Of a stretch of DNA of 64,000 nucleotides, positions 29,401 through 35,400 are shown piece by piece. Within the stretch, counting starts at the first letter, position 1, and each line of letters begins with the position of its first letter. A program made the position numbers. Location of the stretch: NCBI RefSeq assembly GCF_054482595.1, contig NZ_CM137008.1; one strand, written 5' to 3'.

Positions 29401-32400
29401 CAGCCTCCTGCATACCATAGTTCAACGATAACCAGTATGAATCTTTCAGGCTGGGATAAAGCGCGCACAGTTTCCAGGCGCGTTTGGCTTTAAGCGGCAT
29501 AGAGGCTTGCACCGTGAAATGCTGCGCATCATGCCAGCGCAACAGGTTATCAGCCGAAAATGCCGGCAACATGAAAAGGGAAAGAAGTAAAAATAGCAGT
29601 ACGCGCATGATAGCCTCATCAATAATAAGGCTTTATGCTAGATGCATTCCGCTTTGCGACTCAACATTTTTCACCTAAAGGATGACAAAATCACATAAAT
29701 AATTTAAAAATCATAGCATTAGATTACTTAATGATTAAATAATAGACTGCAAAACGCGACAAAACACAACATATCCAGTCACTATGAATCAACTACTTAG
29801 ATGGTATTAGTGACCTGTAACAGAGCATTAGCGCAAGGTGATTTTTGTCTTCTTGCGCTAATTTTTTGTCATCAAACCTGTCGCACTCCAGAGAAGCGCA
29901 ACGCCTCGCAATCCAGTGCAAAGCTTTGCGTGCCCCCACTACGACCTGCATAACCAGTAAGAAGATAGCAGTGATGTCAAACGACGCAGATGTCTTCTTT
30001 TCTTTCATGACTTCTCCAGCATGCATATCTTTCTGCCATGACTGAAGTGAATGCCTGTTATGAGCGAGGATTGGCCCAGACTTAGATAATGAGAGAGCAC
30101 GGTGCTAATACCCAGACACGTCACCAGCCAGGCAACAACAGATGGGGTCATAGCAACATTTTGGAAGGTATCTTCGTATCATGATGTGGTTAAATAGACA
30201 TAATTTAACCCAATGGAATTTTCGCCATGCTAACCTTCTGGCACGAATATTCAGATCTCATATCCGCATTTTTAGCAGCTCTTTTAGGTGGCTGTTTCAC
30301 GATGATTGGAGTGACAACTCAGGTGAAACAGCAGGCAAAACAGCAGGCAACAGCGGCCAGAGAGAAGCGTATAACAACGCTATTGGGTGTCAGAGAGGAA
30401 ATAGACTCACTGATTAAACTGTATCAGGCCAGAATGGCAGAAGAAATCGAAAAATACGACCGGAACTCACCGTTCGATAACATTTTCCCCATTACTCAAA
30501 ACTACTTCACGTTCTATGAAGCCAACTCGGCATCCCTACCTGAAGTTCATAGAGAAACACTCTCAAAAATTGTGGCTTTTTATACAAGCGCAAGAAGCCT
30601 AATTGATTCCTATCGCGGCAATAATGCGCTTATCGAACGGCTAGACTCCACGCAGGTTGCAAGTGACATTACTGGCAACAAAGAACATCTTGCACACCTG
30701 AAAAGATACACAATCCTAGCCACAGAGTACGGCCGCGGATTAATGATGATTCATGATGAGGTCATGCTCCGCTATAAACAGGTTATAGAAGCCATCGATG
30801 GTGAAATCTCACAGCTACAATGCAGTTAGCACTACAACCTGTCCGCATATTGAGCGACACGGTCGGATTTAGTGGGCTGAATGTCCGTTGTGAGCACTTA
30901 ACGGACATTGCTAACCGCCTTCTGAGTGAATTATCAGGGAGTAGGTCAAGATGGGACGTAGAGCACAAATCGTGGACAACATTTTTCGGGCACTTTTTAA
31001 AAATGACTAAACTGGTAAAATTCGATGTTATGAGCTGCGCTTTTAAGGGCCGTTAGTCGCATAGATTGTTAATCTATTCAGCGTTACTCATTCTCCAGAT
31101 TACCAGTTTAAATGGATGCACGGCCACCATGTTAAAATCTAACGCGGCCCTAAAGTCAGAGTGTAATGGGAAATGCAAGAAGTTATTTTCGTGCGCGTTC
31201 ACTGGCGCACCTTGAGCAACCATTTCTCAATGCGTCTTAAAAGAGATGACTTGACTAAATTATGTATGCACTATCTGAATCTGATTTTTTTACTTAAAAG
31301 GGGGTTTTCAATGACAGCAATAGCCTGCTGGCTAAACAGGGAAGAAGGGGAAAGTATCTGGGCCGTAAGCGACTCAAGAATCACCCAGCATGAAAGTGTA
31401 ATGACAAATCACTGTCCTAAACTATTCTCGATTCCGGTATCAGTTATTCGCTCCAATGACATATACCGTCTATCTCCGGAAAAAATTATGGAGTTTGGTT
31501 TCGGCTTTGCAGGAGGAACAATGATCGGTATAAATGTGAAGGAGTTACTTGCCGTATCATTATCTTCATTACATGAAGTTAATTATTATGATGTTCAGCA
31601 GCCGGAGTTGACTTATGATAGTTACCCGAGTCTTTATGAAATTGCAGTTTTAACAAAGGGAATCGCAGAAAAATTTATACTGGATATTGGCCAGTTTTTT
31701 CCCCGTTCTGTAGCAACGGAGATGATTATTTACGGATTCTGTTTCAGAACACAGGTACATAAAATCATTAAGATCTACAACACCCCATCAAACCCCACTA
31801 ATCTTGTAATTGAGGACTGCCTTGACCTGACAACAGGTACCCCGGTAGTCTTGGGAGACAGAAAGCAGCAGTTTCGGGAAGATATTGAGATGACGAGGGG
31901 GCGTTTTGAGAATGGCACACTTAACTGGTGGCGGGCGCCATTTATCGCGTTAAACAACTGGATATCACAGGACACCGTAAATACAATTGGTGGGTATATT
32001 CAGTTCTCAATGGCGAATAGAATTGGCGCAAGAAATCTTTTTATGTCCAGCTCAGAGTCTAACCCCCTTGATATGACCTATGCCGGAATCAGTAATACAA
32101 GTGCTCCAGGATTTACCATTGGACAACTTAGTATTATGCCAATGTTAGGTATGACCCTTCCTGGGGAAAATGGCTGGCCATACGGCGATCAAATACTCCA
32201 TAATGATTAGAAGGTTAAGTATTTTATATTGGATATATGGCTATTGTGCTGCCATGATTCTAACAAATTATGCTTAAGAGGTGGTGCAACTCCTCTCATA
32301 CAAAAAATACGTAAAATCAGTAACGGCTGGAAATAATTCAATACATACACTCTCGAAAGTGCATCAGCCAACCGCAGCACGTCTTGCATACGGCGTGTCT

Positions 32401-35400
32401 GCGGCTCTACCATATCTCCTATGAGCAACGTGTTAGCAGAGCCAAGCCACAACTCTAATTTTAATACATAATGAATGATAATAATATTAAAAATTTTCTG
32501 TGTAACTAATTTACTATATGGTTTCTGATAAGAATCATTGCAAAGATTAAACAACTTGTATTACATTGACAGTTAAGCAGTTAATTTTATCACCTCTAAA
32601 ATATATCAGCATCTAGCATGCAACCTATCAAAATGGAGATTTTTATGACTAAAAAACCATGGGAAAGAAGACTTAAAGATTTATCGCACTTGCTCAAATG
32701 CTGCATTGATACATATTTTGACCCTGAATTATTCCGCTTGAATTTGAATCAATTCCTCCAAACTGCAAGAACAGTAACATTTATTATTCAAAAAAACAAA
32801 AACCAGATTATAGGATATGACATTTGGTATAACAATAATGTTATTGAAAAATGGAAAAATGATCCATTAATGGCTTGGGCTAAAAATTCTCGCAATACGA
32901 TAGAAAAACAAGGCGATTTAGAAATGTATAGCGAGGCAAAGGCTACTCTTATTTCATCTTACATTGAAGAAAATGACATTGAGTTTATTACAAATGAAAG
33001 TATGTTAAACATTGGTATAAAAAAGTTAGTCAGACTTGCACAAAAGAAATTACCTTCATATTTAACTGAATCATCTATTATTAAATCAGAAAGACGATGG
33101 GTCGCTAATACGCTAAAAGATTACGAATTATTGCATGCCTTAGCTATAATCTATGGCAGAATGTATAACTGCTGTAACTCTCTTGGCATACAAATAAACA
33201 ATCCAATGGGTGACGATGTGATTTCGCCAACATCATTCGACTCTTTATTTGATGAAGCCAGGAGAATAACTTATTTAAAATTAAAAGATTACTCCATAAG
33301 CAAATTGTCATTTAGCATGATACAATATGATAATAAAATAATTCCTGAAGATATTAAAGAGCGTCTAAAACTGGTAGATAAGCCTAAAAATATCACTTCG
33401 ACAGAAGAGTTAGTTGACTATACAGCCAAGCTTGCAGAAACGACTTTTTTAAAGGACGGTTATCACATTCAAACATTAATTTTTTATGATAAACAATTCC
33501 ATCCAATTGATTTAATCAATACAACATTTGAAGATCAAGCAGATAAATATATTTTTTGGCGTTATGCAGCTGACAGAGCCAAAATAATAAATGCCTATGG
33601 CTTCATTTGGATATCAGAGCTATGGCTCAGAAAAGCAAGCATCAACTCCAATAAACCAATACATACAATGCCAATTATAGATGAAAGACTTCAGGTAATT
33701 GGAATTGATTCAAATAATAATCAAAAATGTATTTCATGGAAAATAGTTAGAGAAAACAAAGAAAAAAAACCGACTTTAGAAATATCAACAGCAGACTCAA
33801 AACATGACGGAAAACCATATTTCATGCGTTCAGTCTTAAAAGCAATTGGCGGTGATGTAAACACTATGAACAATTGAGTCATAGAACTTCCATTATTCTC
33901 CTGAAGATAATAATCGCCAAATAAACCAATACTCAGCTTTACAATATACTAACTAACCGCAGAACGTTATTTCATACAACGTTTCTGCGGCATATCACAA
34001 AACTATTATTCCATAACAGGGATTGCAGGCCACTCAATATCAGGTGCTACTGATGTATCAACTCGGTTCAGCAATACCCGATATGTCTTCCATGCCGCCA
34101 GTAACAATATCTCCTCCTCCGTCGCAATATCCAAATCTACCGCATCCTGAAGCGGCGCAATATGCTCACTGGCTACCCGCATGAGGCTGTTTTTTGTTTC
34201 TTCCGCCTCCCGTATACGAAACTGTTTTTCTGCTTCTGCATCTTTCACCCAGGTTGTGCCGTTCCACTTCTGATATTCCCCATCCGGCGACAACCAGGTG
34301 ACATTTTCCGGTAATGAGCCGAGTTCAGAAATAAATAACGCGTCCCCTGATGCCACGTCATAAACTGTTTTACCCCGATGGTCTTCAACAAGATGCCACG
34401 ATGCCTCATCACTGTTGAAAACAGCCACGAAGCCAGCCGGAATATCTGGCGGTGCAATATCGGTACTGTTTGCTGGCAGACCTGTATGAGGCGGAATGTA
34501 TGCGTCACCTTCACCAATAAATTCATTAGTTCCGGCCAGCAGATTATAAATTGTTATGGTCCGTGGTTGTTCACTCATTCTGAATGCCATTATGCAAGCC
34601 TCACAATATAGTTAAATGCGATGTTTTTGACGGTGTTTTCCGCGTTACCAGCAGCGTTAACGGTGATGGTGTGTCCGTGTGAGCCAATCGCAACGGAGTG
34701 CGTATGAGCACCAATACCGACAGTATGCGCGTGTGCACCTGCACTTGCAGCAGTACCTGACACCGGGTGGGTATGCGCTCCGGCTGACGATGTGCCAGTA
34801 CTCGAGCCTGCACGAGACGCACCTTTGAGGGCTTTATCGCCCTGCTCGGTATTGCCAGATGGGTAACAGGCAACCGTGTGTGTATGTGCCCCTGCAGAAG
34901 CAGCCGTACCACTGACACTATGGGTGTGCGCTCCGGTGTTATTCGTGGATTTAGTGCCGTAATCAAACGACGATGTGGTTTTCGTCCCCAAATCCGTACT
35001 GGATGCACTGGCACTGTGGGTATGCGATTTAATGCCGTCCTGTTCCTGAGATAATACGGCACGACCACTGGCGGGCTTGCCCTTAATCGTCCAGCCACGC
35101 ATATCAGGGATCACGCCTGACGGATAAGCGGCTGCAAGTTTCGGGTAGGCAGATTTGTCAAAAGTCTGCCCCTGCATCAGGGCATAGCCAGACGGAACGG
35201 TATCTGATGGCCACGGGATTGGTGCACCGACTGGATAAAACTCTGCAGGAGGATGAGCCGAGGTGTAAAGCTGCGCCCACGGCGACCAGTTTGCGTCGGT
35301 CGTATCCCGTCGTGAACGAATAAATGCCGGAGCATGAGCACCGCTTGTACCACCCCAGCCGATGAGTAACTCACCTTCGCCAACGGCTGTCATCCCTTTC

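Follow-up and report, generated by a model that had tools for sequence, protein, structure and literature searches.

Which genes fill the arm between the attachment site and the tail fibre genes in a lambda-type prophage where two of lambda's own genes are missing, and do they work together or separately? We addressed this question in a window of 64,000 nucleotides (contig NZ_CM137008.1 of assembly GCF_054482595.1). The first-pass annotation had placed three plus-strand ORFs of 200, 299 and 410 aa between a tI/sib-like hairpin and tfa, opposite in strand to the tail genes, lower in GC than their flanks and separated by spacers of 480 and 434 bp. All three are present and intact. Gene A (30227 to 30829, 200 aa), gene B (31311 to 32210, 299 aa) and gene C (32645 to 33877, 410 aa) lie on the plus strand; the tail fibre assembly gene tfa (34006 to 34590) and the intact side tail fibre gene stf (34590 to 37625, 1011 aa), with which the late operon ends, lie on the minus strand. 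The spacers measure 481 bp between A and B (30830 to 31310) and 434 bp between B and C (32211 to 32644). The GC content is 0.441 in A, 0.422 in both the A-B spacer and B, 0.341 in the AT-rich B-C spacer and 0.313 in C, against 0.534 in torT, 0.477 in tfa and 0.552 in stf, that is, 31-44% versus 48-55%. On the other side the prophage adjoins at its attR end the host gene torT (28580 to 29608, minus strand), identified from its ORF and from the PGAP annotation torA-torC-torR-torT of the identical locus in strain EC5502.

The longest ORFs for B and C are slightly longer than the forms used here (31173 to 32210, 345 aa, and 32618 to 33877, 419 aa). We prefer the 299-aa and 410-aa starts because each has a Shine-Dalgarno motif about 7 nt upstream (GGGGG and GGAG, respectively), because the homologues of B start with Met-Thr and because lambda's ea47 is annotated from the corresponding position. 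From base composition we estimate the probability of a stop-free frame at about 1e-8 for B and about 1e-15 for C, and both genes are by this measure too long to be chance ORFs in DNA so rich in AT. These low probabilities, together with conserved homologues for A, B and C alike, argue against chance ORFs. A further plus-strand ORF of 78 aa (30820 to 31056), whose ATG overlaps the stop codon of gene A (ATGCAGTTAG), is of uncertain gene status and carries no PGAP annotation in the two related loci inspected.

The att side is of lambda type. The P arm of attP with the tI/sib region (29697 to 30070) matches lambda with 88.7% identity in blastn; its core-proximal part, about 29697 to 29760, has diverged and the homology stops near 30070. 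Positions 29790 to 29890 correspond base for base to the tI/sib region of lambda (pairwise alignment, 100%). Folding, alignment and an inverted-repeat search all find here, on the plus strand, the hairpin followed by a T run (29820 to 29869, arms 29820-29837 and 29852-29869), which is identical to that of lambda and the sole inverted repeat that the search found. With a folding energy of −29.7 kcal/mol for 29790 to 29890 (z = −2.4) the hairpin claimed earlier is real, and its orientation is, by sequence, that of a terminator for transcripts running from int/att toward the b-region genes. Homology to lambda picks up again at 32278, 367 bp 5′ of the ea47 start, and continues through tfa with 96-97% nucleotide identity. 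Both matches thus support reading this DNA as the b-region, in which a lambda-type prophage carries its accessory genes between tfa and att. Position, strand logic and tI/sib are shared with the lambda b-region, in which ea59, ea31 and ea47 lie between attP and tfa; however, the att core and the integration site differ, as lambda integrates at gal-bio and the prophage here next to torT.

Only the third gene is common to both phages. The product of C has 406 of 410 residues identical to lambda Ea47 (99%) and matches phrog_19262 over residues 1-410 with E = 7.9e-292. The Pfam family PF26900 (Phage_lambda_Ea47) is found in C as well as in every one of its homologues, and order and strands are those of lambda, ea47 being the last b-region gene and facing tfa in convergent orientation. 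By alignment C is therefore lambda ea47 itself, as its size had suggested to the first-pass annotation. The same annotation had likened the 299-aa gene to ea31, and this part did not hold. B as Ea31 has to be rejected: the BLASTP alignment is gapped with 24% identity (pairwise E = 0.017), there is no PADLOC match to B and the predicted fold is proteasome-like. Likewise, the 200-aa gene was said to be a membrane protein located where lambda has ea59. It does carry a hydrophobic segment but is unrelated to ea59, and a relationship of A to Ea59 or PtuA is rejected on the basis of a BLASTP E value of 6.4, the size of 200 aa with a transmembrane helix and the lack of such a match in PADLOC.

The alignments thus indicate that genes A and B stand where lambda has ea59 and ea31. 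In lambda this slot is filled by a PtuA-like AAA ATPase and an HNH protein. In PADLOC, ea59 matches Septu-type PtuA (E = 5e-184) and PDC-M01A (4e-201), and ea31 matches PDC-M01B (6e-113), so that the pair corresponds to the Septu-like two-gene systems (PtuA/PtuB and the candidate PDC-M01). Here, in contrast, a membrane protein and a proteasome-like hydrolase are found, which have no sequence or domain in common with PtuA, PtuB or PDC-M01 and, unlike the Septu-like genes, are not an obligate pair. The genes that replace ea59 and ea31 occur in only 6-8 of 5,426 complete E. coli genomes and ea47 in 120 of them. The view of this slot as a variable one of defence type gains support, since lambda's occupants match defence profiles and have been exchanged here for genes rare in E. 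coli.

Gene A has one hydrophobic segment, residues 11-29, with a Kyte-Doolittle 19-residue mean of 2.16. Judged from its sequence, A crosses the membrane once: the segment serves as its one N-terminal transmembrane helix, and the remaining part, a conserved helical domain about 170 aa long, is predicted by the positive-inside rule to be cytoplasmic. Homologues are 56-96% identical across genera. No match was found in Pfam or PDB, and the only PADLOC matches are weak ones to ZorB (E = 0.002-0.006) that are confined to the transmembrane region. Small membrane-anchored exclusion or abortive-infection proteins are known from prophages and phages, for example RexB of lambda, SieB of P22 and Imm of T4. 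A resembles these proteins in being small, in its single N-terminal transmembrane helix, in being borne by prophages or islands and in travelling alone together with its upstream DNA, but it has no sequence or profile similarity to RexB, SieB or Imm.

The nucleotide matches further delimit a module A on the plus strand (30061 to 30948), which comprises gene A plus flanks of about 165 bp on its upstream and about 120 bp on its downstream side. Loci of Serratia, Cronobacter and Dickeya match this module with 84-90% nucleotide identity beginning at 30061 or 30123, thus including the upstream region, and in E. coli TL20 the shared stretch is confined to 29915 to 30948. These boundaries indicate that module A moves between genera as a unit.

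For gene B the predicted structure is informative. The model shows the four-layer alpha-beta-beta-alpha fold of proteasome subunits, with an extension past the core fold at the C-terminus (roughly residues 245-299) that distinguishes B within the proteasome-like family. Met1-Thr2 is invariant in close and broad family alignments, and 125 of 150 representatives begin with Met-Thr. Thr2, Asp21 and Lys37 are invariant with the spacing of proteasome Thr1, Asp17 and Lys33: D21 and K37 are 16 residues apart like D17 and K33, and they fall on these two residues in an HMM alignment to a proteasome beta subunit. G63, the equivalent of the oxyanion-hole Gly47, never varies in the close family and hardly ever in the broad one. 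The profile of B found a proteasome beta subunit in PDB with a non-significant E value of 0.1, Pfam gave no match even at E ≤ 10, proteasome models included, and NCBIfam gave no relevant match, proteasome/HslV models included. On the strength of the model, B is a member of an unannotated family with a proteasome-beta fold and without a propeptide. From the conserved residues we infer that B may act as an N-terminal-nucleophile (Thr) hydrolase. The host methionine aminopeptidase would remove Met1 and thereby expose the threonine as nucleophile. B could then work on its own as a threonine peptidase, with a connectase-like transpeptidase as a further possibility; the C-terminal extension probably sets the specificity for substrate or partner.

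The proteasome-like (T1/Ntn) family comprises the proteasome beta subunit, HslV, Anbu and BPH as well as 22 homologue groups, among them the phage-borne PPH and the proteobacterial RPC and DPH (Fuchs, Alva and Lupas 2021, PMC8665760). Some homologues, for example connectase, are monomeric ligases (PMC8665760). PPH is with about 140 aa much shorter than B, with its 299 aa, and both PPH and RPC lack helix H2 (PMC8665760), whereas the model of B keeps H1 (70-84) and H2 (108-129). RPC has a C-terminal extra domain and is found only in Proteobacteria, which would fit the C-terminal extension and the mainly proteobacterial spread of B; the presence of H2 in the model nevertheless leads us to reject a place in this group. 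The representative of the divergent proteasome homologue DPH, WP_074989469.1, is absent among the B cluster members listed when accessions are compared. The contexts in which we find B, next to CBASS, in an ICE and in a lambdoid b-region, are not described in PMC8665760.

Ea47 has a confident structure model, as does B. Its N-terminal part is predicted to form a HEPN-like four-helix bundle, but the four-helix bundles of FAT and vinculin score as well or better, and the C-terminal alpha/beta region of about 270 aa gave no structural match. The family is large (at least 456 clusters) and has 50 invariant columns; the invariant residues of the N-terminal domain include R42 and R83-N84-x2-E87-K88. 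As no histidine is invariant in this domain in the family alignment, the canonical HEPN motif Rx4-6H is missing. The C-terminal region also sets ea47 apart from the HEPN abortive-infection and toxin proteins (AbiU2-like, Cthe_2314-like, RiboL-PSP and HEPN-MNT), in which it has no counterpart. Plaques form without ea47 (PMC10695390).

It could be argued that A, B and C are functionless, that is, decaying remnants or neutral hitch-hikers, given the missing annotation, the rarity in E. coli, the AT-rich, foreign-looking composition and a non-essential ea47. We regard this as highly improbable. The three intact ORFs, the identity of A across genera, the conservation of B homologues down to about 22% identity with invariant catalytic residues, the many invariant columns of ea47 and the confident models all speak against decay. 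Nor are A and B, by alignment, degenerate remnants of ea59 and ea31.

Could A and B be the two halves of one system, a membrane sensor or effector working with a protease, which replaced ea59/ea31 as a unit? All six complete E. coli genomes with this B have A directly upstream, an unrelated argW/IntS prophage has acquired the two genes together, with 99% identity, and the pair sits exactly at lambda's two-gene Septu-like slot. However, the genes are 481 bp apart, and loci with A but no B are found in E. coli TL20, Serratia, Cronobacter and Dickeya. B homologues stand alone in Serratia, Providencia and Photobacterium, 15 other contexts of B have no A-like neighbour, and clustering of the neighbours at 17 B-family loci gave no recurrent partner gene. 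Furthermore, a nucleotide comparison finds lambda-like flanks at 29915-30070 and 32278-32404 in the NADC1036 copy, which fits a transfer of the whole b-region segment by recombination rather than selection for the pair. Such a system is in our view quite unlikely. A coherent three-gene unit A-B-C is rejected, since A and homologues of B each occur alone and the B-family loci show no recurrent partner. The distribution instead indicates that three single-gene modules, each swapped horizontally on its own, make up the b-region as a mosaic.

The function of these modules has to be approached through their neighbours. No defence profile in PADLOC 2.0 (PADLOC-DB 2.0) matches B or C, A, B and C have no match of known function among the NCBIfam 20 antiphage models and PHROGs, and our literature search found no paper tying proteasome homologues to phage defence. 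The context evidence comprises about 15 distinct loci, without a statistical enrichment test. B lies directly downstream of CBASS genes in Massilia (same strand, gap of 23 bp), Pseudomonas (P. cedrina, 320 bp) and Herminiimonas (two intervening genes). PDC-S33 and PDC-S64 are neighbours of B in Serratia and P. fluorescens, and a Mrr-type nuclease adjoins a relative of B in Photobacterium. Other copies of B reside in a P2-like prophage, in an ICE and next to integrases; the contexts in Psychrobacter, Vreelandella and Aeromonas are uninformative. Relatives of A and ea47 have AbiL, AbiTii and HEPN_Toprim_N as neighbours, and a DUF4011 helicase is, besides HEPN_Toprim_N, among those of A homologues.

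One might therefore consider B an accessory part or regulator of CBASS-type cyclic-oligonucleotide immunity, with an orphan copy in the prophage, as in three of ten loci from species-representative genomes B lies directly behind a CBASS cyclase and is read in the same direction. Yet the b-region of the window has no CBASS gene in it or nearby, most contexts of B are free of CBASS, the three systems differ in type (phospholipase versus 2TM effector) and defence genes gather in islands anyway. We consider such a role very unlikely.

The Ea genes of lambda are N-dependent early genes, and A, B and C share their orientation and position. As in lambda, N-antiterminated transcripts from pL could cross tI and enter the b-region after infection or induction. 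A lysogen would have its b-region severed from pL, so that only promoters within the AT-rich spacers could drive A, B and C. A consensus promoter scan gave 15 sites where 14.8 are expected, which is chance level and so lends no support to expression in the lysogen. The record of phage HK629 places a sigma-70-like promoter 49-79 bp ahead of ea47, in the stretch homologous to the B-C spacer. Lying downstream of att and tI in this orientation, the genes would be equally well placed for early lytic expression, as would suit counter-defence or host takeover.

A, B and C could indeed be lytic-cycle genes that are read from pL through the lambda-identical hairpin directly upstream and serve counter-defence or host takeover, B degrading a host immune or regulatory protein. 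The chance-level promoter count agrees with this explanation, the proteasome homologues PPH and AAH are known in lytic Caudovirales (PMC8665760), and accessory counter-defence genes are usually dispensable for plaques, as is ea47 (PMC10695390). The B family, however, is also found outside phages where there is no read-through of pL type, in an ICE and in islands after same-strand CBASS operons. Moreover, homologues of ea47 and A are single chromosomal genes beside Abi-type genes, and the close B subfamily is present on only 4 viral contigs of IMG/VR. We judge a purely lytic role possible, though on the unlikely side.

From the genomic context we infer a defence role for A, B and C. Since genes of the B family reside on prophages, an ICE and islands with the described neighbours, and relatives of A and ea47 have similar ones, we take the three genes as independent functions of a conflict type. 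A three-module mosaic of independent conflict-type accessory genes is, taken as a whole, the explanation toward which we lean with modest confidence. A could be a membrane-anchored exclusion or abortive-infection factor, B could cleave a phage or host protein upon infection and ea47 might work via its HEPN-like domain. The b-region would thus provide separate accessory functions which may shield the lysogen, or the element itself, from competing phages.

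The host side of the prophage end is made up of torC (26613-27833, minus strand), torR (27915-28607, plus strand) and torT (28580-29608, minus strand), and the end of a lambda-type prophage begins after torT. Between torT and tfa lie three intact open reading frames on the plus strand, that is, gene A (30227-30829, 200 aa), gene B (31311-32210, 299 aa) and gene C (32645-33877, 410 aa), with spacers of 481 bp (A-B) and 434 bp (B-C). Their GC content (0.44, 0.42 and 0.31, respectively) is below that of the flanking genes torT (0.53), tfa (0.48) and stf (0.55). This layout confirms the first-pass annotation, which had also noted a tI/sib-like hairpin; the window is in fact identical to lambda tI/sib base for base from 29790 to 29890 (folding energy -29.7 kcal/mol, z = -2.4). 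A 77-aa minus-strand open reading frame (29793-30026) crosses the tI/sib region. The underlying DNA is shared with lambda, whose record has no annotation at this place, and the frame is probably not a gene. On the other side of tfa, stf (34590-37625, minus strand) is a single intact open reading frame of 1011 aa; the lambda record splits it into the coding sequences orf-401 and orf-314. The centre of stf is a long low-complexity stretch rich in Ala, Ser and Thr, especially at about 36000-37250 (GC about 0.60, AT skew down to -0.42), which gives rise to long spurious open reading frames in the other frames.

Comparison with lambda reveals a mosaic. The P arm (29697-30070) is 88.7% identical to lambda, the homology is then absent after 30070 and comes back from 32278, and ea47 and tfa are 96-97% identical. 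Gene C is thus lambda ea47 as had been proposed from its size and position, with 406 of 410 residues identical to lambda Ea47. The proposed identities of the two other genes had to be given up: BLASTP and PADLOC rule out that the 299-aa gene is ea31 and that the 200-aa gene, which lies in the place of ea59, is related to Ea59. Instead 2.2 kb are found here in place of about 3.1 kb of lambda DNA carrying ea59 and ea31. In PADLOC, lambda Ea59 matches the Septu-type PtuA (E = 5e-184) and PDC-M01A (4e-201), and Ea31 matches PDC-M01B (6e-113). The two lambda genes (NC_001416 24509-26973; 2317-4781 in our extracted lambda locus L001) are named in RefSeq only as 'AAA family ATPase' and 'HNH endonuclease'. 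The Septu-like pair of lambda is therefore swapped for other cargo in this prophage, and this exchange supports the earlier view of a variable, defence-type slot. Of the first interpretation the variable b-region slot and ea47 hence stand, and the ea31 and ea59 assignments do not. As the same slot holds different cargo in this prophage and in lambda, the arm is comparable to the variable defence hotspots known from P2 and P4 elements. Complete genomes of E. coli (n = 5,426) contain ea47 in 120 cases, A in 8 cases and B in 6.

Do A, B and ea47 form one system? The segment with A and B (29915-32404) is 99% identical in the strains NADC1036 and Bongo. The NADC1036 copy (locus L004, 5001-7490) belongs to an unrelated prophage (argW/IntS), where it is flanked by the integrase and a pin/tail-fibre module; at its ends it retains lambda-type b-region DNA, about 155 bp on one side and about 125 bp on the other (29915-30070 and 32278-32404). 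These short lambda-like flanks suggest an origin in a lambdoid b-region and imply that the segment was probably gained from a lambdoid phage by recombination rather than as a discrete mobile cassette. A search for junction repeats, a possible basis of cassette mobility, found none. Gene A occurs without B in E. coli TL20, in a Serratia chromosomal islet adjoining a HEPN_Toprim_N gene, in Cronobacter at the att-proximal end of a lambdoid prophage and in Dickeya next to a giant DUF4011 helicase. The Serratia, Cronobacter and Dickeya copies share 84-90% nucleotide identity, which extends into about 165 bp of upstream DNA. We also considered that the 300-aa neighbour of A in Cronobacter could be a hidden B homologue and rejected this. 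Since each of the three genes is found alone elsewhere and no partner gene recurs in the neighbour clustering, a three-gene system or operon is rejected. A, B and C are independent modules and the locus is a prophage accessory arm with swapped morons, ordinary in kind, not a single system. Plasmid pSM107_MCR (NZ_CP130669.1; locus L036, 7001-17001), 111 kb in size and equipped with genes for a type IV pilus and a shufflon (PilV), contains this end of the prophage as well, with A, B, ea47, tfa, stf, lom and J at 100% identity. The phage has thus integrated into a conjugative plasmid too.

We analyzed protein B more closely. Searches of Pfam, NCBIfam, PHROGs and PADLOC gave no match to it, and all 26 clusters of the close family are named 'hypothetical protein'. 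A profile search retrieved 807 representatives at 50% identity, mostly of 270-290 aa and matching from residue 1. Even homologues with only about 22% identity retain M1, T2, W7, D21 and K37 without exception; the Met-Thr start is invariant in the alignments and present in 125 of 150 representatives. The longest open reading frame for B begins at 31173 and would encode 345 aa; PGAP chooses this start in EC5502 and 4FM and the 299-aa form in NADC1036 and SM107. With the longer start the predicted threonine nucleophile would be buried. The 299-aa start, Met-Thr behind a GGGGG Shine-Dalgarno sequence, is backed by the whole family; good Shine-Dalgarno sequences precede the starts of both B and ea47.

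The family HMM places D21 and K37 on D17 and K33 of a proteasome beta subunit, at a non-significant E value of 0.1. The spacing of these residues in B is 16 residues, as for D17 and K33 in the proteasome, and G63 suits the oxyanion position of Gly47. As modeled, B thus folds like a Thr1 N-terminal-nucleophile hydrolase and possesses all of its catalytic residues. A propeptide is missing, and past the core fold the model shows a C-terminal extension of low confidence (roughly residues 245-299). Fuchs, Alva and Lupas have catalogued 22 new proteasome homologues, among them PPH, which is carried by phages, and RPC and DPH from proteobacteria (PMC8665760). PPH and RPC lack helix H2 (PMC8665760), whereas this helix is kept in the B model, which argues against B being a member of RPC. 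Representative accessions of the DPH and RPC groups were not found among the members of the B-family clusters. Our literature search found no paper which ties proteasome homologues to phage defence or to the conflict between phage and bacterium.

The genomic contexts of B homologues without A are diverse. In a lambdoid prophage of Serratia the gene is bordered by a RelA_SpoT gene (PADLOC PDC-S33) and a CI-type repressor; in a P2-like prophage of Providencia it adjoins ogr and gpD; in Photobacterium it shares an island with integrase, HNH and Mrr-type genes; and in Pseudomonas fluorescens and in a viral contig it lies next to an integrase. Another homologue lies in an E. coli ICE of the PFL_4703/TIGR037xx type, with the conjugative transfer ATPase directly ahead of it and small HTH genes behind. 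This paralogue (NZ_CP027440.1, locus L041, 7001-7921) has 306 aa, is present in 37 complete E. coli genomes and has diverged from B (74.6% nucleotide identity across the first 252 nt). In three further cases the B homologue is located downstream of CBASS on the same strand, namely in Massilia sp. Root133 with a gap of 23 bp (L035, 5546-8858), in Pseudomonas cedrina with a gap of 320 bp (L031, 5783-8870) and in Herminiimonas fonticola with two genes in between (L033, 3946-8882). The CBASS genes upstream encode either a phospholipase and a cGAS-like cyclase or a 2TM effector and a cyclase. This adjacency could reflect operon linkage or mere clustering in defence islands. Neighbour clustering of 17 B-family loci gave no recurrent partner gene, and a genome scan with the alignment of the close family found only 10 loci. 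In two metagenome contigs a distant homologue, P0062, directly follows an R2K_3 ATP-grasp gene (PF14243; L023 1042-2851 and L024 1002-2811), which suggests a possible pairing of a peptide ligase with a proteasome-like protein in part of the wider family. Judged from these sequences, the B family apparently comprises active, unannotated proteasome-like hydrolases carried on mobile elements and found beside CBASS.

Protein A has a single transmembrane helix near its N-terminus (residues 11-29). As the sequence after the helix is rich in Lys and Arg, the C-terminal domain of about 170 aa is predicted to be cytoplasmic; this domain is strongly conserved in blocks such as SPFDNIFPITQNYFTFYEAN. No match to A was found in Pfam, the PDB, PHROGs or NCBIfam. 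When A and B were checked against the defence models of PADLOC, as the first-pass annotation had proposed, only weak ZorB matches confined to the transmembrane region of A were obtained. A further open reading frame of 78 aa (30820-31056, plus strand) begins with an ATG that overlaps the stop codon of gene A (ATGCAGTTAG), an arrangement suggestive of translational coupling. The NADC1036 copy has this frame as well, which PGAP leaves unannotated.

The ea47 family comprises at least 456 clusters, all with the Pfam domain PF26900 'Phage_lambda_Ea47', and has 50 invariant columns. Homologues are found as single-gene cargo adjoining AbiLi/AbiLii in Shewanella, in an integrative island of Pectobacterium together with AbiTii, FRG, DUF5677 and UvrD genes, and as a lone insertion amid housekeeping genes in Aeromonas. 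A sequence search against the PDB gave nothing. We hypothesize from modeling that the N-terminal domain of Ea47 is HEPN-like; a canonical HEPN motif is absent. The literature on ea47 consists of a yeast two-hybrid report (U-Ea47, N-Ea47) and of data on its non-essentiality; our search for a function of Ea47 found none, and the gene is treated as non-essential.

How these genes are expressed bears on their role. Consensus promoters and terminators in the b-region were no more numerous than in shuffled sequence, and thus the gene-specific promoters of the first-pass annotation find no support. The scan also missed tI, because the tI loop is longer than its limit. In the record of phage HK629 a sigma-70-like promoter is annotated upstream of ea47. 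In the integrated prophage the b-region lies apart from pL. The lambda Ea genes are reached by N-modified pL transcripts reading through tI, and after infection or excision such transcripts could likewise enter the b-region here. With the promoter scan at chance level and the b-region cut off from pL until this read-through, the main rival explanation is that A, B and ea47 are early lytic, counter-defence genes. We suggest that all three serve conflict between genetic elements, most likely by protecting the lysogen.

Building on the architecture and the module swap established here, on the predicted fold of B with its conserved catalytic residues and on the mobile and defence-adjacent contexts, we suggest that protection of the lysogen could involve B in these following steps. 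Methionine aminopeptidase accepts threonine as second residue, and removal of Met1 would expose the threonine nucleophile. B would then be an active and specific peptidase or transpeptidase, which upon infection could cleave or ligate a specific phage or host protein. The family with its approximately 800 representatives would be stand-alone proteasome-like threonine proteases or transpeptidases, spread via prophages, ICEs and defence islands and sometimes operon-adjacent to CBASS. The b-region could be a defence arm with three slots, ea47 and the two of the Septu-like ea59/ea31 pair, which A and B can replace. That the B family represents a novel class of mobile effectors in immunity or conflict, that Ea47 is a HEPN-like single-gene abortive-infection protein and that the b-region is such a three-slot arm is, taken jointly, a tentative proposal which we consider rather unlikely to hold in all its parts.

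To our knowledge the lambda b-region is a textbook "non-essential" region and its genes have no assigned roles to date. The Septu-like profile of the ea59/ea31 pair gives a lead on its role, and ea47 now has a structural lead in its hypothetical HEPN-like N-terminal domain. A further lead is the B family, whose roughly 800 unannotated members are recognisably proteasome-like, have the Thr/Asp/Lys set intact, are carried by mobile elements and are neighbours of CBASS and further defence genes. Should B turn out to protect lysogens, the bacterial immune repertoire would gain threonine-protease chemistry.
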